Below, in pieces: positions 4,979 to 21,414 of a stretch of 21,463 nucleotides of DNA (within the stretch, counting starts at the first letter, position 1; every line of letters begins with the position of its first letter). The stretch is taken from the NCBI GenBank assembly GCA_040752415.1, contig JBFMGU010000184.1, forward strand, positions 1-21,463, read 5' to 3'. The position numbers and the translations under genes were made by a program. The notes beneath the pieces are model-generated. The model searched no databases and was not told the DNA's origin. It was given only the letters and a program-made list of their open reading frames with translations. Origin of the DNA: Myxococcota bacterium. Lineage in GTDB: Bacteria; Myxococcota; JACRCW01.

Positions 4979-6049
4979 ATGCGTTTCCCTCGACGGCACC
5001 TCCACCTCTGCGCGTGCGTCGCGTTCCTGCTGGCGCTCTGGTCCTGCAAGAACTCCGAGGACCAGGCGGCCAAGGAGCGCGTCTTCTCCCCGCCACCGCC
5101 CAACCCCATCCTGGAGAAGGCCAAGGAGCCCGTGGACCTGGCCAAGCTGGAGCAGGACAAGGACTACCGGCGCAAGGTCCTGGGCATGCTCTTCCCCGAG
5201 GTCCAGGCACGCCTCAAGGCCGGCCTGTTCACCGTCAAGGAGACGCTCACCATCCAGAAGGGTGAGCAGAGCATCAGCGTGGAGGAGAACGGCCAGATCC
5301 AGTTCAACAGCCACGGCGACATGGCGGTGGAGCTCAAGACCGGCCCCACCGAGGCCATGCAGCTGGTCTACACCAACGAGGTGCTCTACCTGCGCAACCG
5401 CGCCGGCCAGTGGCGCGCCAGCCGCGACCCCTCCGACGAGCGCCACTTCTGGGCCAACGAGACCTACGGCGCGCTGCGCACCACCGCGGACCTCTTCAAG
5501 GACGCCATGACCTTCAAGCGCGTGGGCCCCGAGGAGATCGAGGGTCGCAAGGCCAGCCGCTTTGAGCTGGGACTGTCCCAGAGCGGTGGAGACCCCGACG
5601 TGCTCACCGACCCCGAGGACGGCGGCCCCCAGACCACGGTGCGCATCCCCGACGGCGGGGCGCTGTTCCGCGCCGCCCAGGACCACCGGCGCGCACTCAA
5701 GGGCGGCGTGCCGCAGTCGCTCACCGGCTACATCATCTTTGACGACGAGAAGGGCGTGCCGCTGAAGGTGGAGCTGGAAGGCACGCTCAAGCTGGGCGGC
5801 AAGCGCACCACCGACATCAAGGCCATGACCATCAAGCTGGAGAGCAGCGTGGTGGACGTGGGCAAGGACCAGGAGATCCTCCCGCCCAAGGGCGCGGTGG
5901 CGGAGATCATCCGTCGTCGCATCCCGGTGAGCCCGCTGGAGTTCCTGGACGGCGGCACCACGCCCGCCAAGGGCAAGCCGGCGCAGAAGGGTGAGAAGGA
6001 CAAGGCGCCCGCCCAGCCCGTCGAGCCGCCCGACGACACCGAAGAGTGA
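4979..6049 (+). CDS. Lipoprotein of unknown function, first gene of the proBA operon
   Basis: Signal peptide ending LLALWSC, very high GC3, stop overlaps the proB start (GTGA). Confidence 0.85.
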   Translation: MRFPRRHLHLCACVAFLLALWSCKNSEDQAAKERVFSPPPPNPILEKAKEPVDLAKLEQDKDYRRKVLGMLFPEVQARLKAGLFTVKETLTIQKGEQSISVEENGQIQFNSHGDMAVELKTGPTEAMQLVYTNEVLYLRNRAGQWRASRDPSDERHFWANETYGALRTTADLFKDAMTFKRVGPEEIEGRKASRFELGLSQSGGDPDVLTDPEDGGPQTTVRIPDGGALFRAAQDHRRALKGGVPQSLTGYIIFDDEKGVPLKVELEGTLKLGGKRTTDIKAMTIKLESSVVDVGKDQEILPPKGAVAEIIRRRIPVSPLEFLDGGTTPAKGKPAQKGEKDKAPAQPVEPPDDTEE

Positions 6050-7191
6050 CCATGGAGCCCGTCACCGAGGCCGCCGCACGCGCCGAGCTGCCGCAGGCCA
6101 AGCGCATCGTCGTCAAGGTGGGGAGCGCGCTGCTCACCACGCAGGGCCAGACCGTCAACGGCCAGGTCCTCTTGAGCCTGGTCACGCAGCTGGCGCACCA
6201 GCGCGCGCAGGGTCGCCAGGTCCTCCTGGTCACCAGCGGCGCGGTGGCCCTGGGCCTGGGCCCGCTGGGCCTCACCGAGCGCCCCGCCGACCTGGCCACC
6301 GCGCAGGCCTCCGCCGCCTGCGGGCAGGTCCGCCTCATGGCCCACTACGCCGACGCCTTCGCGCTGTGCGGCATCCACGTGGGCCAGGTGCTGCTCACCC
6401 ACGGGGACCTGGCGGATCGTCGTCGCTATCTCAACGCGCGGCGCGCGGTGGCGGCCCTGCTGGACCACGGCGTGCTGCCCATCTTCAACGAGAACGACAC
6501 CGTCACCTCCGACGAGATCAAGCTGGGCGACAACGACACGCTGGCCGCGGAGGTGGCCGGGCTCACCGACGCCGACGGCGTCATCCTGCTCACCGACCGC
6601 GACGGCCTGTACAACGCGGACCCGCGCACCAACCCGGAGGCGCGTCGCGTCCCCTTCGTGGCCCACATCACCGACGAGGTCCGCGCCATGGCCGGCGGCA
6701 CGGCGGGCGTGGGCACCGGCGGGATGATCACCAAGGTCCGCGCCGCCACCGTGGCCGGGGAGCACGGGGCGTGGACCGTGATTGCGCCAGGTCGCAAGCC
6801 CGACGTGCTGGAGCGCCTGCTCCGCGGTGACGACGAGGGCACCCTGTTTGCCGCGCGCGAGGCCACCGCGCCGGCGCGCAAGCGCTGGATCGGTCGCACG
6901 CTGCGGCCCAAGGGTGTCCTGGTGGTGGACGACGGCGCGGCGCGCGCGCTCAAGCAGGGTGGCAGCAGCCTCTTGCCCCGCGGGATCACCCGGGTGGAGG
7001 GCACCTTCGACAACGGCGACGCCGTGGAGGTGCGCGCGCTGGATGGCACCGTCCTGGGCCGCGGGCTCTCCGCCTACGCCAGCGATGAGGTCTCGCGCAT
7101 TGCTGGCCACAAGAGTGCGGAAATCCAGTCCATCCTGGGCTACAAATACGCCGACGAAGTCATCCACCGGGACGACCTGGTGGTGGGTTGA
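6046..7191 (+). CDS. proB: Glutamate 5-kinase with C-terminal PUA domain (start GTG 6046 or ATG 6052)
   Basis: RIVVKVGSALL, VTSGAVA, PIFNENDTV, GDNDTLAA, GTGGMITK, and PUA domain ending EVIHRDDLV. Confidence 0.97.
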   Translation: MTMEPVTEAAARAELPQAKRIVVKVGSALLTTQGQTVNGQVLLSLVTQLAHQRAQGRQVLLVTSGAVALGLGPLGLTERPADLATAQASAACGQVRLMAHYADAFALCGIHVGQVLLTHGDLADRRRYLNARRAVAALLDHGVLPIFNENDTVTSDEIKLGDNDTLAAEVAGLTDADGVILLTDRDGLYNADPRTNPEARRVPFVAHITDEVRAMAGGTAGVGTGGMITKVRAATVAGEHGAWTVIAPGRKPDVLERLLRGDDEGTLFAAREATAPARKRWIGRTLRPKGVLVVDDGAARALKQGGSSLLPRGITRVEGTFDNGDAVEVRALDGTVLGRGLSAYASDEVSRIAGHKSAEIQSILGYKYADEVIHRDDLVVG

Positions 7192-7218: not shown

Positions 7219-8517
7219 ATGGATTCCACGAACCATTCCTCCACCGACCTCGCCGCAGCCCTCGCCGGTCGTGCGCGCGTGGCCAGCCGGACCCTGGCCG
7301 CCGCCACCACGGCGCAGAAGAACGCGGCGCTGACCGCGCTGGCGCGTCGCCTCCGCGCGGCAGGTGGGGAGCTTGCCCGGGCCAGTGCCGAGGACGTGGA
7401 AGCCGCCCGGGCCGCCGGCGTGCGCGGCGCGCTGCTGGACCGCCTGCTCCTCGACGAGAAACGGGTGGCCGCGCTGGCCGCCGGCGTCGAGGAGATCGTG
7501 GCGCTACCCGACCCGGTGGGCGTCATCGAGGAGATGGTGCCGCGCCCCAGCGGGATCCTGGCCGGGCGCATGCGCGTGCCGCTGGGCGTGATCCTCATGA
7601 TCTACGAGGCGCGTCCCAACGTGACGGTGGAAGCCGCGGCGCTGGGCCTCAAGAGCGGCAACGCGATGCTCCTGCGCGGCGGCAAGGAAGCGGTGCGGGC
7701 CAACCGCGCGCTCATCCGGGAGGTGGCCGCGGCGCTGGATGAGGCCGGGCTGCCGCAGGATGCCGCGCTGCTCGTCGAGGATCCGGACCGCAGCGTGATG
7801 ATGGCGCTGTTGCAGCGTCGGGGCGAGATTGACCTGGCCATCCCGCGCGGCGGGGCGGCGCTCATCCAGACGGTGGCGGAGAACGCGCGCGTGCCCGTGG
7901 TGGAGCACTACCAGGGCATCTGCCACGTCTACGTGGAGAAGACCGCGGACCTGGACATGGCGCTGGACGTGGTGCGCAACGCCAAGGTGCAGCGTCCCGG
8001 CGTGTGCAACGCCGCGGAGTGCGTGCTGGTGGACCGGGAGATTGCGCCCGTGTTCCTGCCGCGCCTGGCCCAGGTGCTCACCGAGAAGAACGTGGAGCTG
8101 CGCGCGGACGCGGAGGCGCGGGCCCTGGTCCCGAGCATGAAGGCCGCCACCGACGCGGACTGGGACACGGAGTTCCTGGATTTGATCCTGGCGGTGAAGA
8201 CGGTGGGCGGGATGGAGGACGCGCTTCAGTTCATTGCGCTTCACGGCTCCCGTCACAGTGAGGCCATCATCACCAGCAACCATGACCTGGCCATGCGGTT
8301 TGTTCGTGAGGTGGACGCCAGCTGCGTGTTGGTGAACGCCAGCACGCGTTTCAACGACGGCGGCGAGCTGGGGCTTGGCGCCGAGATGGGTATCAGCACA
8401 ACGAAGCTCCACGCCTATGGACCCATGGGCCTGACGGAGCTCACAGCCCGAAAGTGGGTGGTGTTGGGCCGCGGGGAGATCCGCGGTGAGACACACGCGC
8501 GCGGCGGGCGGCAGTGA
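7219..8517 (+). CDS. proA: Gamma-glutamyl phosphate reductase
   Basis: [79 protein letters not shown]. Confidence 0.97.
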   Translation: MDSTNHSSTDLAAALAGRARVASRTLAAATTAQKNAALTALARRLRAAGGELARASAEDVEAARAAGVRGALLDRLLLDEKRVAALAAGVEEIVALPDPVGVIEEMVPRPSGILAGRMRVPLGVILMIYEARPNVTVEAAALGLKSGNAMLLRGGKEAVRANRALIREVAAALDEAGLPQDAALLVEDPDRSVMMALLQRRGEIDLAIPRGGAALIQTVAENARVPVVEHYQGICHVYVEKTADLDMALDVVRNAKVQRPGVCNAAECVLVDREIAPVFLPRLAQVLTEKNVELRADAEARALVPSMKAATDADWDTEFLDLILAVKTVGGMEDALQFIALHGSRHSEAIITSNHDLAMRFVREVDASCVLVNASTRFNDGGELGLGAEMGISTTKLHAYGPMGLTELTARKWVVLGRGEIRGETHARGGRQ

Positions 8518-9128
8518 AGGAGAACATGGCAACAGCCATTGGCGAGAGTGGGACAAGCAAGGGCAAGCCCCGCGGCAGCAAGAAGGCCGCGGCCACGTCA
8601 AAGACCAGCGCGGATCCCTCCCTGGTGCTTGCGCACCGCGTGGCGGAGCTGATGCTGGAGCGCAAGGCGGACAACGTCACCATCCTGCACGTGGGTGGGC
8701 TGACCTCGTTCGCGGACTACTTCGTCCTCGGCACCGCGCAGAGCGACCGGCAGGTCCAGGCCATGAGCCGGCACCTCTCCGAGCTCCTCAAGAAGGAAGG
8801 CCACCCCGTGCTCTCCATGGAGGGCGTGGAGCTGAGCCACTGGGTGCTGATGGATTTTGGCGGCGTGGTGGCGCACATCTTCTACGAGCCCGCGCGCGAG
8901 TACTACGACCTGGACGGCCTGTGGGCCGACGCGCCGCGGGTGGCCGTGGAAGACACCAAGGCCGAGCGCGCCGCCAGCAAGCGCAAGACCGCCGCCAAGA
9001 AGGGCTGACCGACCGCGTTGGCCGCCAAAGCCACGCCGGAGGGTCCTGAAGGGAGCGTGTCAAACCGCCAAGGTGATCCGGGTCACTCCGGAACGTGATT
9101 GGCACGCCGCCAAACGCGATCCGGAGCA
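8229..9128 (+). repeat. Direct repeat copy 1 (3' proA + rsfS + downstream intergenic), repeated at 14603-15502
   Basis: Constant offset of 6374; five substitutions found by eye (8240, 8328, 8391, 9058, 9085). Confidence 0.97.
8514..9008 (+). CDS. rsfS: Ribosome silencing factor RsfS (Iojap family), copy 1 (alternative start ATG 8526)
   Basis: KADNVTIL...[17 protein letters not shown]...EG...[14 protein letters not shown]...[13 protein letters not shown]; position after proA. Confidence 0.95.
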   Translation: MKENMATAIGESGTSKGKPRGSKKAAATSKTSADPSLVLAHRVAELMLERKADNVTILHVGGLTSFADYFVLGTAQSDRQVQAMSRHLSELLKKEGHPVLSMEGVELSHWVLMDFGGVVAHIFYEPAREYYDLDGLWADAPRVAVEDTKAERAASKRKTAAKKG

Positions 9129-9191
9129 CTCCGCAACGCGATCAGCACCCACCCAAAGTGATCCCGGCCACTCCTGAGTGCGCTTGGCACC
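9065..9191. repeat. Degenerate ~42-bp x3 (21-bp sub-period x6) tandem repeat
   Basis: CCGCCAAGGTGATCCGGGTCA / CTCCGGAACGTGATTGGCACG / CCGCCAAACGCGATCCGGAGCA / CTCCGCAACGCGATCAGCACC / CACCCAAAGTGATCCCGGCCA / CTCCTGAGTGCGCTTGGCACC. Confidence 0.7.
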
Positions 9192-9210
9192 CCAGGCGCG
9201 GTGAGGGCGG

Positions 9211-9945
9211 TCACCCCGGGATGAGCTCCTCGTTGGCCACTTCCGTGGTCTGCCCCGGCCGGCGGGAGGACGGGCGCACCTTTCCCGCCAGGTCCTTCTC
9301 CCCAATGAACTCCAACAGCGCACTGGTGAGGTTGGCCACCTGGGAGAAGGTCGCGTCATAGCTGGCGATCGCCTTGTTCTTGCGGTTGAGCGTGTCGTCC
9401 GCCTCTTTGCCTTCGCGGGAGACGTCCTTCAGCGCCTGGCTCAGCTCCGGCAGCTTCAGGGCAATCTGGGCGCGGTACTTCTCCGGATTGAACGTGAACT
9501 CCTCCACCAGTGGCGCGGGCGGCGGCACACTCTTGAGGCCTTCATGGACCTGGGTGGCCACGCGCTCGACGGCCACCGGGTCCTCAGGCGTTTCCCCGGC
9601 CAGGCCAAGCTGCGCCACGTAGCTCTGGCCCATCACGGGCGTGAGCACTTCCTTCATGCGCACCAGCACCGCACGCACTGCCACCGCGCTTTCGTCGCGC
9701 TTCGTCCGCGGACCGGCGTCATCGCCCAGCTCGCGCTCGTGCGCGTCGTCGGCTGCGACCATCGTCGTGGTGTCGGCCGCGAGCGTCTCGCGCATCTTGG
9801 TCAGCAACGTCGTGACCGGTCCCTCCAGTTCCGCGCCAAAGCGCGCGGCAACCCCCGCCGCGATGCGCGGCGCGTGCGTGCTGTTGGCCGCCTGCACGCT
9901 GTTGGACGACTTCTGTCGGTTGATCACCATCTTGGAAACAGCCAC
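9211..9945 (-). CDS. Alpha-helical hypothetical protein (~244 aa)
   Basis: GTG start at 9945 after a G-rich RBS. Host-like codon usage and protein-like helical sequence (MVAADDAHERELGDD...KVRPSSRRPG). The upstream ORF extension runs antisense into the transposase remnant and is discarded. Confidence 0.8.
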   Translation of the reverse strand: MAVSKMVINRQKSSNSVQAANSTHAPRIAAGVAARFGAELEGPVTTLLTKMRETLAADTTTMVAADDAHERELGDDAGPRTKRDESAVAVRAVLVRMKEVLTPVMGQSYVAQLGLAGETPEDPVAVERVATQVHEGLKSVPPPAPLVEEFTFNPEKYRAQIALKLPELSQALKDVSREGKEADDTLNRKNKAIASYDATFSQVANLTSALLEFIGEKDLAGKVRPSSRRPGQTTEVANEELIPG

Positions 9946-10086
9946 GTGAAACCCCCATGTCAAGGTTGGCGCACCATACGCCCCGCCCGACCGAATGCAC
10001 GACGGAATCCGTCGGACAGGTGACCGAGGATGCATCAATTCCCTTCGGCGAACGTCAGCGCCCGGGTCGTGCAACGATGGCACGCC

Positions 10087-10446
10087 TGGGCCGCGCTGAT
10101 TCCCGCGCCCCGCCGACAGACGCACCGGCTCTTCGGGTGCTGGGTCCGGCCTCCAAGCTGCGCCGCCACATCGTGCCGCTCCCCACGCATCGCCAGGGAC
10201 GGGCCAAGAGCCATTCCCACGACGAGCAGCCGCCTGCCTACAGCAACGCATCCCGTGGGCCGAGCTTTTGCGCCGCAACTTCGACGTCGACGCCCTGGAG
10301 TGTCCCCGCTGTGGTGGAAGATTGCGGATGGTAACGGTGGTGAAGGATCCGGCATAGGCCCGCCGCTACGCCAGTCACATGGGGCTGTCATGGGGCTGTG
10401 CGAGACCGACAGGCATGTCAGGGGCCCACCGGAGCTGGCCGCCTGA
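10087..10446 (+). pseudogene. 3' remnant of an IS91/ISCR-family rolling-circle transposase
   Basis: Across frameshifts it reads WAALIPAPRRQTHRLFG / VLGPASKLRRHIVP / RIPWAELLRRNFDVDALECPRCGGRLRMVTVVKDPA* (10247-10357) ... RGPP. This follows the C-terminal pattern of IS91/ISCR transposases (LAALVP.PR.H..RY.GVLAP; WA.LL.RVF..D.L.CP.CGG; ARGPP). Not present in the ORF track. Confidence 0.85.
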
Positions 10447-10492
10447 CCCGCCTTCACCCGCCTCTCATGTTGCGACGCCACGGCTCGCGGAT

Positions 10493-10654
10493 GGACCACT
10501 CCGCTCGCACACGGCCCCAACATGCCCCGTGACGAGGTAGGACCTCACGGGACCGCGCCGTCGCGGCCCACCGCCCTTCCGGAGATCGCCCCGCCTGGCA
10601 GGCACGACCACATCCCCACCCACGGGCGACCCTCGCGACCCTGCTTGGAGTTCC
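10493..10654 (+). mobile_element. Putative oriIS-containing right end of the IS91/ISCR element, copy 1
   Basis: Lies downstream of the transposase remnant and is repeated at 15543-15704. Homology stops at GCTTGGAGTTCC, which resembles the IS91/ISCR oriIS terminal motif (roughly G..TTTGAANTTCCTA, from recall). Confidence 0.65.
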
Positions 10655-10804
10655 CCAGTGTCGGTGGGGCATGGCCCGGAGCACCGCGCGCAGCTCCCGT
10701 CCGACGGTGAACGAGTCGTGTTCCCGACCGGAGGGGGTCTGGCCGTCGCAATTCTCGCGGGGGTCCCGCATCTTCTACGCCCGGCATCGCTGCATTCTCT
10801 TCGC

Positions 10805-10832
10805 TTGACATTAACGGAACATCGCCAACAAT
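10805..10832 (+). promoter_or_regulatory. Possible sigma70 promoter for the cargo operon
   Basis: Perfect TTGACA at 10805-10810, 16-nt spacer, AACAAT at 10827-10832. ATG is at 10839, so the transcript may be leaderless. Confidence 0.4.
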
Positions 10833-10838
10833 TAGCCT

Positions 10839-11603
10839 ATGCGACTACTTCGGATTCTCGTGCACGGCAATCGCAAGCCGGTTCTCCTGGCGGCGATTTG
10901 CTCCATTGTGGCCTTGGTTCCGCTTCTGGGTACCGGGACCCGTGCAGACCCAAGCTCTGATTCCGATGCGAACTCCCATTCTCGGGCACCTCAACCCTCC
11001 CCTGTCGAAGACACCGTGGCCGAGTCCATTTGCTGTCCGAGGGGCGTTTGCGATCCGACGCCAAGAGCCTCGTGTATCTCAGCTCAGCTGCCTCGCGCAG
11101 CGAGCGAGGCCGATTTTCGTGCGGAGATGCAGCCGCGGCGTCCTCGCCGACCGATTCTCTGGGAGCGGGATTACCTGCCCGACACGAACCATTTTGGCGA
11201 CTTGCTGGCTTGGTACTTTGATCATCCCAACACCCTCCACGTGGTGCACGGCGAGGTCGTCTCGGCGGAATCCTACTGGCGTGGTGCCCCAGGAACTAGT
11301 GATATCCGAACACGGTGTACGATGCGGGTGGACGAGACCTTCAAGGGCGAGTTCTTGAGCAGCGTTGTCTTTGACATTGAGGGCGGGAGTATTGATGGAG
11401 CGACACAATTTGTAAGCCACACGCCCGTGTGCACACTCGGGGAGCGTGCGGTTGCGTTCCTTTGGCGTGTGGACAACCTGCTCATCGCGGCCGGTCCCGA
11501 AACGATGTATGCCATCACGGAAGATTTCGCCGGACGACCGAATTCTCGTGGCCGAGTTCTCGCGGAGTCCATCCGTTCCAACTTGGTTGGGGGGCAGCCA
11601 TGA
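10839..11603 (+). CDS. Secreted protein with TIMP/NTR-like OB-fold pattern
   Basis: Hydrophobic signal peptide; VVHGEVVSAESYW...IRTRCTMRVDETFKG...IEGG...GERAVAFL. ATGA overlap with the next gene; many A/T-ending codons. The fold call is an inference. Confidence 0.75.
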   Translation: MRLLRILVHGNRKPVLLAAICSIVALVPLLGTGTRADPSSDSDANSHSRAPQPSPVEDTVAESICCPRGVCDPTPRASCISAQLPRAASEADFRAEMQPRRPRRPILWERDYLPDTNHFGDLLAWYFDHPNTLHVVHGEVVSAESYWRGAPGTSDIRTRCTMRVDETFKGEFLSSVVFDIEGGSIDGATQFVSHTPVCTLGERAVAFLWRVDNLLIAAGPETMYAITEDFAGRPNSRGRVLAESIRSNLVGGQP

Positions 11604-13561
11604 ATGTGCGAATAAGGCCGATAGGGTTCGTCGTAGTATCGGCGCTGACGACGAGCAGTGCAGCTGCGTACGAGTTCACTCCCCAGAACACTCTCAACAG
11701 CAACACGGTTTGGACATTCAGGGTTGACAACGACATAGCTGCTTCCCTCGACTTCGACGACGCGCCGCCACAGCCAGCGCTTGTTCATTTTATCGATGCG
11801 GTTGATCGGGCGATGCAGTACTGGAACTCGACAGGTCGCGCGCGAATCGCTCTGGCCGTGGACCCGGGAGAGAACTGGAGCGTACCAGGCCCGCCTTGTC
11901 CCCCGCCCGAATGTCCATGCCCAAATCCGCCGCTCTGTCTTCCTGCAACCTGCTCGCACGAAAACGATCCGTGCGCTTGCCTGGACCCGCCTTTTTGTAA
12001 GCAAAGTGGGACCTGTACTTCCAGGTGCCAGGGGTATTGGAACGGCTACAACGAAATTCTGCACTTGGACCAGCCCGCCTGGAAAGTGGGGAGCGGCGGC
12101 TACGCAAAGTGCCGCGACGACATTGAGGAATGCGACATTATTCTCTGGTCTAACTTGGGTACGATGGCCGCTCCACATTACTCGTTTCATGCGGAATCCT
12201 CCGGCGAACTGGATGAAGACGGATGCGTAAACTCCTCCGGGATTTCCGTCGCTTGGGTACTGGCCCACGAATTCGGTCACGTGTTGGGGCTTGGCGACAT
12301 GGACAGCGGTGACTCAGAGTGCCAAGTTTCGGGCGGTGGCCCGCTGATGTGTACCCGAAACCGTCGCGACTGGTATCACCCCGCCCCTGATGACGTTGAC
12401 GGCGTGCGTGCGAAGCATGGCGTCATGGCGCGAGACGTGAAGATCATGAGGGGAGACATTACCAATTCCGCGGGCGCGATCACTTACTCCGCGGACAGCG
12501 ACATTCTCGGTATTCAATCCATTTCCGAACCCAGAATCTCTTGTCACAACGTCTTTCCGAACGCTCCGGACTGCATCGTTACGACAACCACCAACAACTG
12601 CAATCCCGGCTTTACGTCTTGCATCAGGTTGTTGGGGACATATGTAAACTCGTCGGGCCAGTGGGAGGTGCAGAGGAGCTTGCTGATGAACAACGGCAGC
12701 AGGCACGATGTCGATGTTGCATACCGTTGGTATCGGGCCCTTGTCGTTCGCGTTGACTCCGCCGACAGTCGCGTGTGGTGGGCGTCTTGGTACCCAGACT
12801 CCTCCACAGTTACCCAAGATTGGTTGAGGACCTCATGCACCCAGAACTCGACGTGCCCAGATAACACCGCTTGTCCAACCTCGGGTCTGTGCGATGCCCA
12901 GACGCGGGAGCCGCCTCGGGTCGCTTGGAACGAGGCGATTGATCGCTTTGTCATCGCGTTCGCCGATCCGCAGAGGCGCCTGTGGGTTTCTGTCTCGACT
13001 AACACTACTGGCACTTCTTGGGGGACAGCGCAGCAAGTCGCCCTCCCGAATGGCGTGATTCCATTTGGACGCTTCGACCTGGTTTGTCCGCAGCACCAAA
13101 CGGCGAATACCCAGTGCCGAATCGTCCTTAGCGACATGGCTAATAACGTAAATGCCTTGGCAAACCGGCAAACGCGCGCGACAGCCTGTAGATTCAACGT
13201 GGCTGCCGCATTTCCCTATGTGTCCGGGGTCGTGTGTGCGTTGACAAGCCGAACCGCCATCATTGCCAACAGCATTTCCGACTACGGCAACAACCGACCA
13301 CCGGTATCTCCCGTCGGCCCAGCTTGGCTCTTCAGCACGTCGCGGCGTCATCCGCAAACTGACGACAACAGTGGGTATATTTTCAACTCGAACGCGACCG
13401 ACATGTTCACGGGGACCGACATGGATGTGGATACGAAGGAGATCCCCACCCTGTTTTCCCCGGGGGCTCCCGCGAGTCTTTGGGGCGGGACGTCTTGCGA
13501 TTGGGTTCCCTATTTGCAGCGCTTCGCATGCGCGGGCCTTGGGGGGGCAGAGCCATGGTGA
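11600..13561 (+). CDS. Secreted Cys-rich metzincin (matrixin/snapalysin-like) zinc metalloprotease with a long C-terminal beta-rich domain
   Basis: Signal peptide (..SSAAA/YEF), AMQYWN, HEFGHVLGLGD at 12266-12298, Met-turn GPLM at ~12340, DDVDGVRAKHG helix. Start ATG 11600 overlaps the upstream stop. Confidence 0.9.
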   Translation: MNVRIRPIGFVVVSALTTSSAAAYEFTPQNTLNSNTVWTFRVDNDIAASLDFDDAPPQPALVHFIDAVDRAMQYWNSTGRARIALAVDPGENWSVPGPPCPPPECPCPNPPLCLPATCSHENDPCACLDPPFCKQSGTCTSRCQGYWNGYNEILHLDQPAWKVGSGGYAKCRDDIEECDIILWSNLGTMAAPHYSFHAESSGELDEDGCVNSSGISVAWVLAHEFGHVLGLGDMDSGDSECQVSGGGPLMCTRNRRDWYHPAPDDVDGVRAKHGVMARDVKIMRGDITNSAGAITYSADSDILGIQSISEPRISCHNVFPNAPDCIVTTTTNNCNPGFTSCIRLLGTYVNSSGQWEVQRSLLMNNGSRHDVDVAYRWYRALVVRVDSADSRVWWASWYPDSSTVTQDWLRTSCTQNSTCPDNTACPTSGLCDAQTREPPRVAWNEAIDRFVIAFADPQRRLWVSVSTNTTGTSWGTAQQVALPNGVIPFGRFDLVCPQHQTANTQCRIVLSDMANNVNALANRQTRATACRFNVAAAFPYVSGVVCALTSRTAIIANSISDYGNNRPPVSPVGPAWLFSTSRRHPQTDDNSGYIFNSNATDMFTGTDMDVDTKEIPTLFSPGAPASLWGGTSCDWVPYLQRFACAGLGGAEPW

Positions 13562-14400
13562 TGGATCGACGTCTTGGCTTGACTGCACTGCTGATTCTCG
13601 TCGTTGCCTGCACCAAGGCGGCCGAAGGGGACTCAGAGTATGCCGAAGAGCCACCTCGATGCGCCGGCAGGGAGAATTTCTGTCGCGACCGGGTGTTTCC
13701 GAGTGATGAGTGGGTGGACTTGGTACATTTCGCAGGGATTGTCCGCCTCAGAAACCCCATTGGTTGTGTTGGCGCCTGCCCTTCGTCTCGAGGGTCGTCG
13801 ACCATCTCCTTGGAAGTGGAGGAGACACTTATTGGGTCGTTGGGAGATGTGCCTCAAGTCCTCGTTGAAGGGCTGGGGGAATTGGCGGATCCCGCACTGT
13901 TTTCCGCTGTGTCAGGTGGCGCTGACAACGTGTCCGCGTTGCTGGTTGCCCGTCTCGAAGGGCCCGGCCAAGATCCGATTTGTGGCATACCTCCGGAACT
14001 GCCGTTTGCGTGGGCCACGGTTGGCGATCCCGCGGAGCGCGGGAAAACCAACCTTCCAGATGGAACGGTTGGGTTCGCTTCGGAGGGGGTCAATGGGCTT
14101 TGGTTTCTTACCACTGACCGCGCCCGAATGGTCGAGGCGGGGTGGGTGGTCAGCGCCGCATACTACCACGCAAGTGGCGAGCATCCCATGAACGGCGGAC
14201 CCGTTGAGGGTGGACGAGATGGCGAAGCGTCCAGCAGCGTCGCGACGGCGAGAGCGGAGTTGCAGGCGTCCCTCTCACGAAATCCAACGAGATCCCCTGT
14301 CATCGTCACCGAGTGCGCGGATGACGTCAATGTCAAACGTGGGCCGTTCTGTTGCCGGTACACACCCTCGGCTGAACACCCAGGAGACGCCGGGCTGTAG
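13555..14400 (+). CDS. Lipoprotein, possibly TIMP/NTR-like
   Basis: MVMDRRLGLTALLILVVAC lipobox; G-rich RBS like that of the protease; overlaps the protease stop. Contains HFAGIVRL...TISLEVEETLIG. Confidence 0.8.
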   Translation: MVMDRRLGLTALLILVVACTKAAEGDSEYAEEPPRCAGRENFCRDRVFPSDEWVDLVHFAGIVRLRNPIGCVGACPSSRGSSTISLEVEETLIGSLGDVPQVLVEGLGELADPALFSAVSGGADNVSALLVARLEGPGQDPICGIPPELPFAWATVGDPAERGKTNLPDGTVGFASEGVNGLWFLTTDRARMVEAGWVVSAAYYHASGEHPMNGGPVEGGRDGEASSSVATARAELQASLSRNPTRSPVIVTECADDVNVKRGPFCCRYTPSAEHPGDAGL

Positions 14401-14602
14401 AGATCGCGCGTTTCGCGTTTCGCAATCAGCGTATCCTTCCGGTGAGCGCGCTTGACGCAGAGGCTGGGGCAGACGCTTCGACGCTTCGATCGTAAGTCCT
14501 CGCCGTGGCCCCCTGTTGGGGGCCTGGCAAAAGGCGGCAATGTTGGCGACGCTGGGAAGCGCTCAGCTTGAATTGGGGAGCTGCAACCCAGGCCGGTCCA
14601 TT

Positions 14603-14891
14603 GTTCATTGCGCGTCACGGCTCCCGTCACAGTGAGGCCATCATCACCAGCAACCATGACCTGGCCATGCGGTTTGTTCGTGAGGTGGACGCCAGCTGCG
14701 TCTTGGTGAACGCCAGCACGCGTTTCAACGACGGCGGCGAGCTGGGGCTTGGCGCCGAGATGGGCATCAGCACAACGAAGCTCCACGCCTATGGACCCAT
14801 GGGCCTGACGGAGCTCACAGCCCGAAAGTGGGTGGTGTTGGGCCGCGGGGAGATCCGCGGTGAGACACACGCGCGCGGCGGGCGGCAGTGA
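14603..14891 (+). pseudogene. proA: 5'-truncated duplicate of proA (last ~95 codons)
   Basis: Near-identical to 8229-8517; the rest of the gene is absent. Confidence 0.95.
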
Positions 14892-15382
14892 AGGAGAACA
14901 TGGCAACAGCCATTGGCGAGAGTGGGACAAGCAAGGGCAAGCCCCGCGGCAGCAAGAAGGCCGCGGCCACGTCAAAGACCAGCGCGGATCCCTCCCTGGT
15001 GCTTGCGCACCGCGTGGCGGAGCTGATGCTGGAGCGCAAGGCGGACAACGTCACCATCCTGCACGTGGGTGGGCTGACCTCGTTCGCGGACTACTTCGTC
15101 CTCGGCACCGCGCAGAGCGACCGGCAGGTCCAGGCCATGAGCCGGCACCTCTCCGAGCTCCTCAAGAAGGAAGGCCACCCCGTGCTCTCCATGGAGGGCG
15201 TGGAGCTGAGCCACTGGGTGCTGATGGATTTTGGCGGCGTGGTGGCGCACATCTTCTACGAGCCCGCGCGCGAGTACTACGACCTGGACGGCCTGTGGGC
15301 CGACGCGCCGCGGGTGGCCGTGGAAGACACCAAGGCCGAGCGCGCCGCCAGCAAGCGCAAGACCGCCGCCAAGAAGGGCTGA
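14888..15382 (+). CDS. rsfS: Ribosome silencing factor RsfS, intact copy 2
   Basis: Protein identical to 8514-9008; the overlapping alternate-frame translations are also identical. Confidence 0.93.
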
Positions 15383-15542
15383 CCGACCGCGTTGGCCGCC
15401 AAAGCCACGCCGGAGGGTCCTGAAGGGAGCGCGTCAAACCGCCAAGGTGATCCGGGTCGCTCCGGAACGTGATTGGCACGCCGCCAAACGCGATCCGGAG
15501 CAACTCCAACAGCGCGCTGGTCAGGTTGGCCACCTGGGAGAA

Positions 15543-15709
15543 GGACCACTCCGCCCGCACACGGTCCCAACATGCCCCGTGACGCGGTAGGACCTCACGG
15601 GACCGCGCCGTCGCGGCCCACCGCCCTTCCGGAGATCGCCCCGCCTGGCAGGCACGACCACATCCCCACCCACGGTCGCCCCTCGCCACCCCGCTTGGAG
15701 TTCCTACCC
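15543..15709 (+). mobile_element. Putative oriIS end of the IS91/ISCR element, copy 2 (no transposase)
   Basis: Copy of 10493-10654 ending CCGCTTGGAGTTCCTACCC, a better match to the oriIS motif than copy 1. Confidence 0.65.
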
Positions 15710-15806
15710 GTACGAAGGAAGCTCGGTTACAGCCAACGGGGCAATCAGGTGGAATTGACGTCCTGGCCTCCGGTATCTATCCGCGAGCGACGTTCCCTGA
15801 GGCTCC

Positions 15807-18539
15807 ATGTCACCGTCCTCTCGCGCCTTGGCCCTCACCGTTGTCGCCAGCCATCTCGCCTGCGCACCGGGAGCCCAGAACCCCTCCTCCTCCTCTTCCA
15901 CGACCACCTCCTCCTCGTCATCGTCGTCATCATCATCATCGTCTTCGTCAACGGGCGGCGCGGCTTCCGGCGGGTCCTCCGCGGCCACGAGCGCACCCAC
16001 CAGCGCCACCTCCGGAGCGCGCTCGTCGAGCGCCGAGGCCTCTTCCGCAACGAGCGCGGTCGTCGTGGTGTCCTCCTCGAGCGCGCCAGGCTCCGCGAGC
16101 GCTCCGTCATCATCCAGCGGGGCCACGGCCTCGTCGGGGCCGCGCAGTGGAATGACGTCGTCGTCGGCCTCGGCATCGCAGCCGCCCGGGAGCTCGAGCG
16201 CGGACAGCGCGAGCGGCGGCAGTGGCGTGACGTCGTCATCTCCGTCAGGGCCACCGACGCCAGGGAGCTCCAGTGCCAACAGCGCGGCCAGCAGCAGCGG
16301 CGTGGCGTCATCGTCAGCATCGCAGCTGCCCGCCAGCTCGAGCATGAGCAGCGCCAGCAGCGGGACACCCGTGAGCTCCTCGTCCTCATGGCCGGCCACG
16401 TTCCCCGGGAGCTTCAGCCAGCGCACCGTCGAGGTGATCCGCGCCGATTACGATCTCTGGTGGTGGGATGACCCGGACATCGATGACGACCAGGTTCGCG
16501 GGGTTGCGGTGGACCTCGAGGGAAACTCGTATGAGCTGCGGCCGGGCACGCTCATCAAGCGGAATCTCGACGGAGCGCGCCTGTGGACGGTGAACTTCGA
16601 ACCCACCGAGCACGTCAACGCGCTCCTGGCGCTTCCCGGCGGAACGCTCCTGCTCGGCGGCGCGGTCGTCCCGCCCGCTGGTCCGGTGCGTCCGCTGCTT
16701 CGTGAGGTGTCCCAGGCGGACCGCTCGATTCAGTGGGATGCCGAGGTGGAGCTCGAGGGCGGGCTCGCGAGCATGGCGTTGGATGGGCTGGGCAACCTGT
16801 TCATCGTCGCGGATGGGATGCTCCGGCGGTACTCGCCGGAGCGCACGGTGTCCTGGACCATTCCCAAACCGCAGGTGCTGCCCACCCTGGACGGCGTCGT
16901 CGGCGAGGCGTCCGGCGGCGTGTACGCGTACTCGGACAACAATGATTCCGTCGCGCGTCTGGATCTGTCCGGTGAGACCCTCTGGAGCGCCGAATTCCCG
17001 CACAATTGGGTCGTCTACCGCCGCTTCGCGTCCGACCCGAACGGCGGATTCTTCTATGCGGTCACGCATGAGACGGATTTCACCCACGTCCTGGACCTCC
17101 ACCATTACTCGCCGTCCGGCGAGCGCGTGAGCTGGTGGGCCTGGAGCGACCTGCCCTCCTACATCAACACGAACGTCACGGGACTCGACACCGATGCGCA
17201 GGGCCGCGTGTACATCATGGGCCACACCTCCGCCGGACACTTTGGCCAAGGCTCCGCCGAGGTGATCTTCCTCGCGCGGTTGAGCGCCCCCTGGACAACC
17301 GATTTCCACGGTCCCGCCGGCGGCTACATGAGCTGGTCCATGGCGGTGGACCCGTCCGGCACGTTCCTCTACGCGCTCGTCGGCTTCTCCAACCAGGACA
17401 TCCGCGGCGCAGACCTCCTCAAGAGATACGACGACACGGGCGCCGAGGTCTGGGTCGACTGCTTGTATTTCCCGTACCAGGATGCCGTCCTCGGCGGACT
17501 CGCGCGCAATGCCATGGGCCACACCGTCATGGCGGTCTCGCACGGGATTGAAGAACCCGTGGAACCCAACACCTGCCCGCCGCCGGCCTCGCCGCGCCTC
17601 CGCGAATACGCGCCGACCGGCATCCACGTGCGCACCGTGCCGATCGACACCGAGTTCAGCACCATCACCACGGGACCGGACAACTCGTTCTACGGCGCCA
17701 TCCACACGAACACCGTCCAGCGGCGCTCGGCCACCGATGGCGCGCTGATGTGGGCCCAGCCCCTGGTCCCCGCCTTCGGGTCCCCGAAGGTCATGATTGA
17801 CGCGGATGGAGCGGGAAATCTCTATGCGGTGCTGACGTCCGACCGCGACGACGGCCCGTTCACCAGCGTCGTGCAGTACACGCCCGATGGCACGCGGACA
17901 TGGCACATGGTGCCGTCCTCCGTTGAACGCGCGATGGCACTCCGCGCCCTCCGCACCAGCGGCGTGGCCGTGGGATTCCGGGAGGGGCTGGTCGTGCTGG
18001 ACGCACAGGGCGCCGAGCGCTGGCGCAACACCTCGACCACCTGGCTCATCGAGGTCGACGGCGCGGGCGACCTCTACACGCTCTCGTGGGAGTTGAAAGA
18101 GGACGCCTCCGGACAGCTCGTGCTGGACGACAATGGTGCTGTCATCTGGGAGCAGACCTTCCGCAAGCTCTCCGGCGACACCGGCACGGTCCTGTGGCGC
18201 TCCGCGTTCGAGGCGCCGAGTCCCACCATGTATCCCGTGGGACTCGCGGTGGACGCGGCAGGCTTCATGCGCGTGGCCTGCACCGAGAGACTCTACGACC
18301 CGCGCACGCAACAGTACTCGGATGGAAGGGTCACCATCCTGCAATGGGACGGCTTCACCGGGACGCCCCTGGGCGCGCTCCCCACCGTCACGGACCTCGG
18401 CCTGGTCGACGTGAAGGCGGTGCAGGCGGACCCGTTCGGGAACGTCTTTGTCGCGGGCACCGGGACGCAGGACCCCACGCTTCCGGGCCAGGAAGCGCAT
18501 GCGTACGCGCCGTATCTTGCGGTGTTCGGTTGGCAGTGA
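15807..18539 (+). CDS. Large lipoprotein with Ser-rich stalk and beta-propeller (SBBP/NHL/PQQ-like) repeats
   Basis: Lipobox ..VASHLAC and a ~170-aa Ser-rich linker. Blade repeats include GVAVDLEGNSY, SMALDGLGNLFIV, GLDTDAQGRVYIMG, SMAVDPSGTFLY, IDADGAGNLYAV, VQADPFGNVFVAG. Confidence 0.9.
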   Translation: MSPSSRALALTVVASHLACAPGAQNPSSSSSTTTSSSSSSSSSSSSSSTGGAASGGSSAATSAPTSATSGARSSSAEASSATSAVVVVSSSSAPGSASAPSSSSGATASSGPRSGMTSSSASASQPPGSSSADSASGGSGVTSSSPSGPPTPGSSSANSAASSSGVASSSASQLPASSSMSSASSGTPVSSSSSWPATFPGSFSQRTVEVIRADYDLWWWDDPDIDDDQVRGVAVDLEGNSYELRPGTLIKRNLDGARLWTVNFEPTEHVNALLALPGGTLLLGGAVVPPAGPVRPLLREVSQADRSIQWDAEVELEGGLASMALDGLGNLFIVADGMLRRYSPERTVSWTIPKPQVLPTLDGVVGEASGGVYAYSDNNDSVARLDLSGETLWSAEFPHNWVVYRRFASDPNGGFFYAVTHETDFTHVLDLHHYSPSGERVSWWAWSDLPSYINTNVTGLDTDAQGRVYIMGHTSAGHFGQGSAEVIFLARLSAPWTTDFHGPAGGYMSWSMAVDPSGTFLYALVGFSNQDIRGADLLKRYDDTGAEVWVDCLYFPYQDAVLGGLARNAMGHTVMAVSHGIEEPVEPNTCPPPASPRLREYAPTGIHVRTVPIDTEFSTITTGPDNSFYGAIHTNTVQRRSATDGALMWAQPLVPAFGSPKVMIDADGAGNLYAVLTSDRDDGPFTSVVQYTPDGTRTWHMVPSSVERAMALRALRTSGVAVGFREGLVVLDAQGAERWRNTSTTWLIEVDGAGDLYTLSWELKEDASGQLVLDDNGAVIWEQTFRKLSGDTGTVLWRSAFEAPSPTMYPVGLAVDAAGFMRVACTERLYDPRTQQYSDGRVTILQWDGFTGTPLGALPTVTDLGLVDVKAVQADPFGNVFVAGTGTQDPTLPGQEAHAYAPYLAVFGWQ

Positions 18540-18580: not shown

Positions 18581-18904
18581 ATGATCGGTCCGTCGCGAGG
18601 GAGGAACGCTCCAGTGCCGGTCTTGACACTCCTGGTGATGCGCTCGGTTGCCGCCGGCCAGCCCGCACCCGAGCCGGGGACGCTGCGCGTCGGCGTGGCG
18701 GGCACCGCCCCCTTCGTGCTGGACGACGCGGCCGCGCCCGGCGTCAGCGTCGAGATCTGGCAGGCCATGGCCACCGATGCGCTGGGCGCGTGCCTCTTGG
18801 GGGCCATGGGCGCTGGGCAGCGGGAGAAGCGGGGGCCGGCGTTGGCCCTGGCGCAGCCCTGCGCCTCCTTCAAGGTGGCGAGAGCGCGCCGGTCACCCGC
18901 CTGA
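18581..18904 (+). pseudogene. N-terminal fragment of a family-3 (polar amino acid) solute-binding domain protein
   Basis: TLRVGVAGTAPFVLDDAAAPGVSVEIWQAMA matches the start of SBP_bac_3-type domains; similarity is lost after ~18775. Confidence 0.55.
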
Positions 18905-19042: not shown

Positions 19043-19822
19043 ATGCGGGAGGCGCGCGCCGCCGTGCACCGACATGAGAAGCGAAGATCCAAGTTACGAA
19101 ATGAAGAACTGCGTCCGGTGCTGGGGCGACTCGAGAGTGCTCAGGACGAGTACCGCTCCACGCGCTGGGGCCTGGTGCGGACGGTCAAGAGCATGCACCT
19201 CGTGGCGGCAGAGCATGCCGTGCGCGGGCTGACGGCTCCTTTCGTCGCGGCGGAGGAAGCGTACCAGGCCGCCAAGGACCTCGCCGAGCACTACGATCCG
19301 ACCGTGCCCTTCCCGCTCAATCGGGGGTCACCGCCGGTGCTGGAGGAGATCGTCGGGTGGTGGCGCGACCACCTGGGCAAGGAGGTGGTGGCGGCGGTCG
19401 CGCAGATTGAAAAGCGTGCGGAGGCGCGCAAGTCACGGCCGCCACGACGCAAGCCGCTGCCCAAGGATGCCTTGCAGCGCGCGTTCCCGGAGTTGACGCG
19501 CTGGGTTGCGGAGCGCGGATGGATCGAGGTGGGGCACCACGACGGGTTCGAGCCCGAGCCCTCGCATGTCCGGGTCCTCGACGAAGGTGGCATGGTCTAT
19601 CAAAGCAACAAGGAGCGCTCCCTGGAGGCCGCGTTGCGGGAAGCCGAGCGCGCGCTGGCGCGGCGAAGACGACTCTACGGGAGTGACCCCGAGCAGAACC
19701 GTCCCGAGGATCCACGCGTGCAGCACCGGGGTGCGGAGGCGCGGGTCCATGGGAGGGAGTCGGTCACGCCTGGGCGGGCGCGGGCTCGTCGGCGGGGATG
19801 GCGGGCGGGCGCGGACCAATGA
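19043..19822 (+). CDS. Hypothetical protein, probably frameshift-damaged at one or both ends
   Basis: Protein-like core (FPELTRWVAERGWIEVG...VRVLDEGGMVY...SLEAALREAERAL). Protein-like sequence continues upstream in another frame, and the tail overlaps the convergent gene by 59 bp. Confidence 0.6.
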   Translation: MREARAAVHRHEKRRSKLRNEELRPVLGRLESAQDEYRSTRWGLVRTVKSMHLVAAEHAVRGLTAPFVAAEEAYQAAKDLAEHYDPTVPFPLNRGSPPVLEEIVGWWRDHLGKEVVAAVAQIEKRAEARKSRPPRRKPLPKDALQRAFPELTRWVAERGWIEVGHHDGFEPEPSHVRVLDEGGMVYQSNKERSLEAALREAERALARRRRLYGSDPEQNRPEDPRVQHRGAEARVHGRESVTPGRARARRRGWRAGADQ

Positions 19823-20264
19823 CGTCCGCCAGGATCCACAACGGCCCCACCAGCAGGTGCTCGAGGTTCTGCGCGAACGCGGGACGCTTCTTTTCCCAGA
19901 TGGCGTGCCCGGCCAGCTGGATCACCCAGCTCACCACGAACACGGCGAGGTTCGGCCAGGGACCGTACGGTCCGTCGTACTGGAACACCGGCTGCACCGC
20001 GAGCACGTACAGCCCTGGAATGACGACGAGCATGCCCAGGAACAGCCGCAGGTTGAGCGAGGCGTAGTAGCCCAGCACGCCCAGGCCCACGAGCTGGCCC
20101 AGGTTCAGCGCCACCCCGCCCACGCTCCCGAAGCGGACCCACGTCAAGAGGGCCAGGATGGAGAGCATGATGAGCGGAATGGCAACCTGGTGCGTGCGCT
20201 TGTTGCCCACGGTGCGGTGATAGCGCTGGTAGTCCACGAAGAGCGCGTGGAGTCGAGGGTTCAT
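19764..20264 (-). CDS. Mpo1-like / DUF962 membrane protein
   Basis: Y..YH...NK.THQVAIPLI, WVIQLAGHAIWEKKRPAF..NL..LLVGPLW; AGGAGG RBS before ATG 20264. Confidence 0.92.
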   Translation of the reverse strand: MNPRLHALFVDYQRYHRTVGNKRTHQVAIPLIMLSILALLTWVRFGSVGGVALNLGQLVGLGVLGYYASLNLRLFLGMLVVIPGLYVLAVQPVFQYDGPYGPWPNLAVFVVSWVIQLAGHAIWEKKRPAFAQNLEHLLVGPLWILADVIGPRPPAIPADEPAPAQA

Positions 20265-20334
20265 GGCAGGCCTCCTGCGAGGGATCCTAGACCGGACTTG
20301 CGGCGCGCGGGCAGTCTCGGGAGAACACCACCCC

Positions 20335-21414
20335 ATGGAGCTTCTGGACCAGGGTTGTGCCCTCTTGCGCGCACAGGCGCGGGTTGTCCTCGGGAAACCG
20401 TGGGACACCGCCCCACTTTCCGACGAGGAGACGCGGACGCTGGCCACGGCGCTCACGCCCCTGAGCGAAGCCCTCAACACCACCGCCGCCACCGCGCCGT
20501 ACCTGCAGGATCCCGCCACGCGCGCGGCCTACGTCGTGGGCATGGCGCCGCGCACGCTGGCCGCGGTGCTGCACGAGCTGCCACCCCTCCCCGTCGGGGC
20601 GCGCGTGTTGGACCTGGGCGCGGGCACGGGCGCGGGTGCCTTGGCCTGCGTGCTGAGCGGTGCGGCGCACGTGGCGCTGGTGGACCACGCTCCGGACGCG
20701 CTCGCCTCCGCCAAGGAGCTGCTCGGACACGCGGGCCTCTCCGACGTCACGCCGTACAACTTCCGCCTGGACACCTGGCTCAATCCGCTGCGGCGCATCC
20801 AGTTTGACCTGGTGCTGATGGCATTCTCGCTGCTGGAGGCCGCCGGTGACGACGTCACGCGAGCCACCGCGCTGCTGGTGAAGGCGGAGCGTTTCGTGTC
20901 GGAGGGCGGGCACATCCTGGTCGTCGACAGCGCCCAGAAGTCCCGTGCGCGCCTCATCAACGCGCTGCGCGAACCGCTGATGGAAGCCGGGTTCCACCTC
21001 TGGGCGCCCTGTCCGCATTCCGCCGCGTGTCCCGCGTTGGAACGCGAGCGCGACTTCTGCCACGCGGCCCGCCCGTGGGGCCTCCCCGACGACGTGGCGC
21101 AGGTGGGTGAGCGTGCCGGATTGCATCGGCATCGACTGGCCTACTCGTTCCTGCTGGTGGGGCGGAACCCGCGTCCCAGCGCGCCGCCGCCGGTGCGGGT
21201 GATTGGTGACGTCCGACGGGAGAAAGGCCGTGCCCGCGTTGCCGTGTGCGCCGAGGGTCCAGTGCGGGAGCTGGTGGCGCTGCAACGCGACCGTGCGACG
21301 TTCGAGGCGTTGCAGGAGCTGCCGAGGGGTGCGGGTTTGCGCGTGAAGGTGCCGGTGGATGCGGAGCGCACGTTGCGTGTCGTCGATCCGGGTGAGCTGA
21401 CGGAGGTGCCGTGA
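20335..21414 (+). CDS. Rsm22/METTL17-family SAM-dependent methyltransferase-like protein
   Basis: RAAY..., VLDLGAGTG SAM motif, APCPHSAACP...DFCH, AYSFL, and a later AVC. Start ATG 20335 follows GGGAG. Confidence 0.88.
   Translation: MELLDQGCALLRAQARVVLGKPWDTAPLSDEETRTLATALTPLSEALNTTAATAPYLQDPATRAAYVVGMAPRTLAAVLHELPPLPVGARVLDLGAGTGAGALACVLSGAAHVALVDHAPDALASAKELLGHAGLSDVTPYNFRLDTWLNPLRRIQFDLVLMAFSLLEAAGDDVTRATALLVKAERFVSEGGHILVVDSAQKSRARLINALREPLMEAGFHLWAPCPHSAACPALERERDFCHAARPWGLPDDVAQVGERAGLHRHRLAYSFLLVGRNPRPSAPPPVRVIGDVRREKGRARVAVCAEGPVRELVALQRDRATFEALQELPRGAGLRVKVPVDAERTLRVVDPGELTEVP

Follow-up and report, generated by a model that had tools for sequence, protein, structure and literature searches.

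A duplicated proA-rsfS block ending at an IS91/ISCR-family tip in an uncultured Myxococcota bacterium: the probable scar of one-ended transposition around a foreign secreted-protein gene pair

RESULTS

Anatomy of the duplicated proA-rsfS locus

The stretch of DNA analyzed here (the window) is the entire 21,463-base contig C95 of an uncultured Myxococcota bacterium (assembly G000, 11.0 Mb in 520 contigs), and it carries, within and downstream of the proA gene, a block of DNA that is present twice and that appears to end each time at the tip of an insertion sequence (IS) of the IS91/ISCR family. A first-pass annotation had described a duplicated proA-rsfS block with unrelated secreted-protein genes after each copy, and comparison of the window with itself confirmed this layout (Table 1). 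The segment 8229-9132 recurs at 14603-15507 (99.3% identity over 905 columns, start-to-start spacing of 6374 bases), 9308-9350 recurs at 15502-15544 (95% over 43 bases), and 10490-10654 recurs at 15540-15704 (95% over 165 bases). Copy 1 (block A1) includes the final 289 bases of proA (8229-8517) and runs through rsfS and the hypothetical gene hyp into the IS end, and copy 2 (block A2) combines a 3' fragment of proA (14603-14891) with a second rsfS, 43 bases of hyp (15502-15544) and the final ~170 bases of the IS. Relative to copy 1, copy 2 therefore lacks positions 9133-9307 and 9351-10489, with short microhomology at both deletion joints. A 43-base tandem repeat (2.6 copies, 75% matches) occupies positions 9065-9174 in the rsfS-hyp spacer, and the first deletion of copy 2 begins within it. 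Among the repeats of at least 90% identity in the G000 assembly, the block repeat ranks fourth in length.

The two copies differ at positions 8240, 8328, 8391, 9058 and 9085, and then at two positions in the 43-base segment and eight in the 165-base segment, so that an exact core of 666 bases (8392-9057) is common to both. Because the assembler may have collapsed internal variants, we draw no inference on gene conversion or selection from the identity of the two rsfS copies. The gene that the first-pass annotation had listed as "hyp" is present and, more exactly, complete on the minus strand; full-length homologues were found in 5 of the 400 other genomes of the phylum searched, and in the nine homologue loci fetched none adjoined an IS91 transposase.

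Table 1. Features of the window, in order of position. G001 is the one other genome of the family; C466 and C3 are contigs of the same assembly as the window.
Feature	Coordinates	Strand	Basis and remarks
proB (glutamate 5-kinase)	6046..7191	+	AA_kinase and PUA domains; 72% identity to the syntenic G001 gene; upstream context
proA, sole full copy	7219..8517	+	Aldedh domain; 75% identity to the G001 gene
Block A1, putative one-ended transposition unit	8229..10654	+	GTTC start, degenerate IS tip at end; homology may reach 10659
rsfS copy 1	8514..9008	+	RsfS, 96.6 bits; 0 differences from copy 2 across 495 bases
hyp, conserved hypothetical gene, complete, 239 aa	9211..9930	-	GC3 (GC content at third codon positions) profile and homologues
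3' remnant of an IS91/ISCR-family element	10076..10654	+	94% DNA identity to C466, 92% to C3
Cargo 1 (X), low-GC segment	10655..14602	+	55-64% GC in 200-base windows from 10700 on
X1, small protein	10839..11603	+	Signal-peptide-like N-terminal segment, read by eye
X2, secreted metzincin-like protein	11600..13561	+	Signal peptide and HEFGHVLGLGD motif, read by eye
Block A2	14603..15709	+	GTTC start, TTCCTACCC end, then GTAC
rsfS copy 2, intact	14888..15382	+	RsfS, 96.6 bits
Cargo 2 (Y), single lipoprotein gene	15807..18539	+	Long Ser-rich linker, SBBP beta-propeller repeats; N-terminus ...SHLAC read by eye
Third piece of this IS, internal to the transposase gene	18770..18840	+	71-base core, 95.8% identity to C466; tblastn
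Rsm22-like methyltransferase	20263..21414	+	Pfam; directly after rsfS in G001

The block ends in a remnant of an IS91/ISCR-family element

The "IS91 remnant" of the first-pass annotation proved to be real, since it shares 94% identity with contig C466, which together with contig C458 encodes a full transposase. The remnant retains the last ~116 codons of the transposase (10087-10443), which tblastn and frame translations showed to be interrupted by an in-frame stop and a frameshift, followed by ~205 bases of the non-coding, oriIS-side end. In copy 2, positions 15545-15711 are 97% identical to the end of C466, and around the third fragment a weaker protein similarity extends over 18689-18856. 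All IS pieces in the window are decayed. The window gave no Pfam transposase match, and none of the 12 Y2_Tnp matches of the genome lies on C95, the domain being present on C466 and C3.

The open frame that runs across C458 and C466 is long and uninterrupted, and it corresponds to the full transposase of the element. Its product gave matches to Zn_Tnp_IS91 (PF14319, 57.2 bits) and Y2_Tnp (PF04986, 43 bits), and it scored higher with the NCBIfam model ISCR_clade_Ia (102.1 and 89.2 bits) than with transpos_IS91 (63.2 and 26.8 bits), all of these NCBIfam scores being under the family cut-offs. It contains an HVHLL (HUH) motif and a single tyrosine in the sequence R-Y-L-L-R; ISCR-type enzymes have one catalytic tyrosine. 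The zinc-binding N-terminal domain and the Y2_Tnp core that characterize the IS91/ISCR family are thus found in the full C458+C466 copy, the window holding a pseudogene. Judged by these predicted domains and motifs, the element linked to the window remnant belongs to the IS91/ISCR family. Related transposases were found in 152 of the 401 genomes of the phylum searched, and a related-locus search with the transposase C-terminus gave no match. The remnant was also considered as a "miniature" one-ended product in its own right, which was rejected because its start at 10076 is not bounded by a target-like tetranucleotide.

Some further observations concern IS elements elsewhere in the genome. A 1008-base repeat of 96% identity (C438:904-1911 and C86:1-1008) adjoins the left part of the same IS on C438, and its end is not at GTTC. 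A family of short repeats, matched over ~100-300 bases on dozens of contigs (e.g. C3:35875-36001 and C205:13313-13439), may be a miniature inverted-repeat transposable element, since it breaks up one and the same IS91-family element at an identical internal site on both C3 and C205. Finally, on a 2.6-kb contig, a different IS91-family transposase gene (C420:470-2064; Y2_Tnp, 203.8 bits) immediately follows a gene for a tyrosine recombinase (Phage_integrase, 137.3 bits).

Motifs at the edges of the block

According to the first-pass annotation, the homology between the two blocks stops exactly at an oriIS-like motif. The right edge is indeed an IS tip, but in copy 2 the canonical tip extends five bases further (TTCC followed by TACCC, to 15709). 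Both C466 and copy 2 read ...CTTGGAGTTCCTACCC, then GT. Elements of the IS91/ISCR family have a distinct oriIS end with a conserved tip some 170-230 bases downstream of the transposase gene. The tip TTCCTACCC is located 203 bases after the transposase stop in C466, and contig C78 carries a 48%-identical IS91-family element in which the same nonamer, followed by GTCA, stands 200 bases past the stop. Of the 32 related loci having downstream sequence, 5 contain TTCCTA at 102-203 bases past the stop. For comparison, the tips of ISCR1 and IS91 read ...TTCCTAT(A/C)CC. The copy 2 tip pairs with GGTAGGACC ~125 bases upstream (bottom strand, z = -2.7), and no such pairing was found in copy 1. The bases that flank the tip on the right are GTAC (A2), GTCA (C78), GT (at the end of C466) and GTGT (copy 1).

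On the left side, GTTC, a tetranucleotide that occupies 0.35% of the window positions, opens both blocks, and the bases that precede it differ between the copies. The flanks of A2, ...GGTCCATT and GTACGAAGG..., contain no direct repeat, and no inverted repeat of at least 40 bases was found within 8-19 kb, in agreement with the absence of terminal inverted repeats and of target-site duplications that characterizes the IS91/ISCR family. In line with the inference of the first-pass annotation, there is no integrase on the contig: none of the nine tyrosine integrase matches of the genome lies on C95, and neither a tRNA gene nor any Rfam family was found on the contig. The motifs support the view that each block ends on the right at the oriIS-side tip of the element and begins on the left with a target-like tetranucleotide.

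In the IS91 family, the target tetranucleotide abuts oriIS and a related one lies at the terminator, and read-through of the latter, for which rates are given, leads to one-ended products (PMC13181058). The experimental one-ended products reported for IS801 have an intact right end and start at a tetranucleotide like that of the left end or the target, with 290-1431 bases of upstream DNA recruited (PMC3189936). Block A, as read from its edge motifs, appears to fit both descriptions, with its right end preserved and its left edge at a target-like tetranucleotide.

Cargo genes

The genes behind the two blocks had been annotated as surface-protein cargos. They appear to encode secreted proteins, cargo 1 (X) consisting of two genes and cargo 2 (Y) of a single lipoprotein gene. 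Cargo 1 only is compositionally foreign: its GC content is 55-64%, compared with roughly 65-74% for most of the remaining window, the low GC spans all of X, and both edges of X are block edges. The X2 product showed weak matches to Peptidase_M7 and M10, under the cut-off, and its family is rare, with 22 proteins at E<=0.001 among 1.84 billion representatives; a word-based search gave X2 itself only. A distant paralogue pair of X1 and X2 is located in the same order on contig C51 (17808-20539; 28% and 25% identity), and X1-X2 is therefore a conserved two-gene module. No match for X was found in the plasmid collection. A promoter scan revealed a single sigma-70-like site (10805-10832, within X), where chance alone would give 0.9, and no evidence of an outward promoter in the IS end.

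The GC3 of Y is native-like, and an apparent frame change in its GC3 profile is due to the Ser-rich linker. Neither Y nor the next gene was found in the three nearest genomes (G001-G003). Neither the last 1 kb of X nor the region around 18.4-19.2 kb gave a Pfam domain, and a solute-binding protein whose N-terminus seemed to be encoded at 18600-18770 had no Pfam support and was discarded. Joining the edges in silico (X circularized, the end of X to Y, and the end of A1 to Y) reconstituted no gene and yielded only open stretches typical of high-GC DNA.

The locus in related genomes

The genus is represented by this genome only and the family by one other genome, G001, in which proB-proA-rsfS is followed 120 bases on by the Rsm22-like methyltransferase gene. 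Compared with G001, the window contains ~11.2 kb of extra DNA between rsfS and the methyltransferase gene. The adjacency of these two genes was observed in 1 of 29 loci of relatives, and the ancestral state therefore rests on one genome. Among the 31 genomes searched, only G000 gave two rsfS matches. DNA searches at the genus and family level returned this genome only, an exact 40-base rsfS pattern matched nothing in metagenome contigs, and the IS-tip pattern matched nothing in either genome or metagenome contigs.

DISCUSSION

Block A, with the proA 3' end, rsfS, hyp and the end of the IS, is on balance probably a one-ended transposition unit of an IS91/ISCR-family rolling-circle IS that was once located downstream of rsfS-hyp. 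The anatomy of the locus, the family of the element and the motifs at the edges are direct observations, and it is from these that we infer the rolling-circle event and its route. Replication primed at the oriIS tip TTCCTACCC would have run back through the element, beyond a missing or ignored terminator, and would have gone on through hyp and rsfS before stopping at the target-like GTTC within proA. The resulting copy would be the one now located 6374 bases downstream, beside GTAC, with the foreign low-GC segment X and its two secreted-protein genes caught between the block copies. At a later time copy 2 would have lost hyp and most of the IS remnant by two microhomology deletions, and the tip of copy 1 would have mutated.

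The arrangement could have been reached by two routes. In route (a), X would have been carried on a circle together with a copy of the block, and the circle would have re-entered by homologous recombination with the resident block, as in the Toleman model for ISCR1, or, in a variant of this route, the transposase would have inserted the circle at the resident tip. In route (b), the unit would have been inserted directly beside GTAC 3.9 kb downstream of its origin, beyond a resident X. The low GC along the whole of X and the position of both its edges at block edges favour route (a), parsimony favours route (b), and the motifs at the junctions fit both routes alike.

Several observations weigh against one-ended transposition. 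The tip of copy 1 is non-canonical, reading TTCC--CCA and then GTGT (a two-base loss plus one substitution). The left tetranucleotide is GTTC in the transposase sense, whereas the products of IS801 and IS91 start with GAAC or CAAG (PMC3189936), and the tetranucleotide rule would fit only if the target of this element is GTNN, as suggested by three full flanks and one two-base contig end. The IS remnant begins at GATG, which is not a target-like tetranucleotide, and therefore at least one edge in the region was made by ordinary deletion. The native left end of the element (terIS, which ISCRs lack) was not definable from the fragmented contigs C458, C438, C147 and C86, since the assembly both breaks and branches in the region of C458 878-1443. 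Moreover, the divergence is uneven along the block, with 5 differences in 900 bases and then 10 in 208, and the tandem state depends on the path that the assembler took through the 666-base exact repeat. Finally, most natural fragments of IS801 are described as products of reorganisation rather than of one-ended transposition (PMC3189936).

This last point also bears on the view that the locus is an ordinary rearrangement scar, in which the second block would have arisen by a non-IS segmental duplication plus deletion, or by recombination between scattered IS fragments, the coincidences of GTTC and of the tip being due to chance. The three plain deletion joints of the region agree with such a history. 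Nevertheless, a tandem duplication of 8229-14602 would give A-X-A-X, from which another precise event would then have to remove the second X exactly at the IS tip. Both outer edges, in addition, carry IS91-type marks. We consider an ordinary rearrangement unlikely.

The first-pass annotation had gone further and proposed an ISCR-style gene-capture platform that stacks cassettes and operates here. The family of the element, the edges and the layout agree with an ISCR-style mechanism, but stacking and activity do not follow from the data. A platform would require that circles formed by oriIS read-through were rescued by recombination in proA-rsfS more than once, so that X, Y and perhaps a third module at 18770 became stacked. 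If X arrived together with a block copy, its uniform low GC and its coincident edges would be explained better than by a local target hit by chance. Y is followed by a third fragment of the same IS, Y and its neighbour are not found in the three nearest genomes, and the Toleman model permits one or more rounds (PMC7707992). On the other hand, one duplication, i.e. a single event, suffices to account for the A-X-A'-Y layout, Y has a native-like codon composition, the third IS fragment is not preceded by any remains of proA, rsfS or hyp, and every IS piece is dead. In addition, there is no second genome with another cargo at this site, the one other genome of the family (G001) being without the insertion. 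Repeated capture thus seems improbable, and the present locus is a scar rather than a demonstrably working capture platform.

A wrong path through the assembly has a similarly low probability in our judgement. In this case the chromosome would read proA-rsfS-(deleted block)-Y, and X with the fuller block would be a separate 6374-bp circle or would belong to another strain. The contigs overlap by exactly 127 bases (e.g. C466 and C458), which indicates a de Bruijn graph assembly, and this length is shorter than the exact 666-base core, so that a chromosome with only the deleted block plus a free 6374-bp circle would fit the same assembly graph. Every difference between the copies is linked to a repeat edge by a chain of gaps shorter than 127 bases, the pattern that a collapse of internal variants would leave, and the assembly is divided into 520 contigs with a contamination of 4.29%. 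However, X is unique in the assembly, so no shared 127-mer could have created the junction between the end of X and proA (14602|14603), and there must therefore physically be a second copy of proA'-rsfS that is joined to X. A circle lacking a replication gene (there is no Pfam match in the tail of X) is unlikely to persist at genome-like abundance, and, since circle and tandem interconvert by recombination, this alternative concerns the state of the DNA and not the mechanism.

Least probable of all is that the oriIS tip 3' of rsfS acts as a reusable, integrase-free docking site at which rolling-circle units bearing proA'-rsfS would re-enter, by homologous recombination or by the transposase at the resident tip. 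Each entry would add one module of secreted-protein genes, first X and then Y, the fragment at 18770 being what is left of a third, and the second rsfS would be kept intact as a homology anchor.

The one-ended transposition that we favour has counterparts in known systems. The layout mirrors the 3'-CS-ISCR1-cargo-partial 3'-CS arrangement (3'-CS, 3'-conserved segment) of complex class 1 integrons (PMC7707992 and PMC6218425), as the first-pass annotation had pointed out. The order of an ISCR1-type array, i.e. anchor, IS with an oriIS boundary, variable genes and a 5'-truncated second anchor, is found at the locus, as are the duplicated segment and the rolling-circle IS with a sharp oriIS tip that the Toleman model comprises; neither an integrase nor an att site is involved in either case, and the C458/C466 transposase scores with ISCR clade Ia above the IS91 model. 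In contrast to the integrons, the anchor is chromosomal, the 3' end of proA plus rsfS instead of qacEdelta1-sul1, the cargo is a secreted-protein gene pair instead of resistance genes, and the host is an uncultured Myxococcota bacterium. Furthermore, only 579 and 170 bases of the IS are left here, variants with other cargos do not form a population as they do in the integrons, and the transposase scores are far under the ISCR family cut-off of 925 bits. The route proposed for ISCR1 is itself described as being without experimental proof (PMC6218425).

The one-ended transposition of IS801, IS91 and IS1294, as reported in PMC3189936 and PMC13181058, resembles the locus in the intact right end, the left edge at a target-like tetranucleotide in the upstream flank, the recruitment of DNA on a kilobase scale and the lack of target duplication; it differs in the tetranucleotides, GTTC/GTAC at the locus against GAAC/CAAG in the transposase sense, and in that the event is deduced here from a scar. 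An 11-kb IS91 circle with catabolic genes has also been reported (PMC5737581). This circle, cIS91sdpA of Sphingobium herbicidovorans, shares with route (a) an IS91-family read-through that involves non-resistance genes and a circular form, but it was detected experimentally and on a plasmid, whereas the locus described here has a chromosomal anchor and is known from assembled sequence alone. In formal terms, A-X-A' is also the product of a single crossover between a circle and the chromosome, as in Campbell-type insertion-duplication, with the difference that the joints of the circle coincide here with IS91-type end marks. In a literature search that paired IS91 with Myxococcota, none of the titles and abstract openings listed suggested such a locus, which is not proof of its absence from print.

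The locus is a natural non-resistance example of a known gene-moving mechanism and not a proven new capture platform, and what is unusual in it is the housekeeping anchor, the host and the non-resistance cargo. Most documented cases of capture by ISCR/IS91 elements concern resistance, virulence and catabolic genes carried by proteobacterial plasmids. The locus suggests a role of the mechanism in shaping ordinary accessory regions well outside clinical settings. A single decayed locus is one example and not a principle; with related transposases in so many of its genomes, the phylum could be mined for cleaner, active examples.

Other features of the contig

Between the accessory region and the methyltransferase gene, the minus strand carries a gene for an Mpo1-like (PF06127) membrane protein (19815-20264), for which G001 gave only a weak match. 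At the start of the contig, positions 162-427 contain a tandem array with a period of 101 (2.2 copies, 92% matches), which overlaps an array with a period of 41. A 60-base inverted repeat (1522-1581 and 1665-1724, 88% complementary, 83 bases apart) lies just 5' of a T2SSE/PilB-like ATPase gene (1805-3364).

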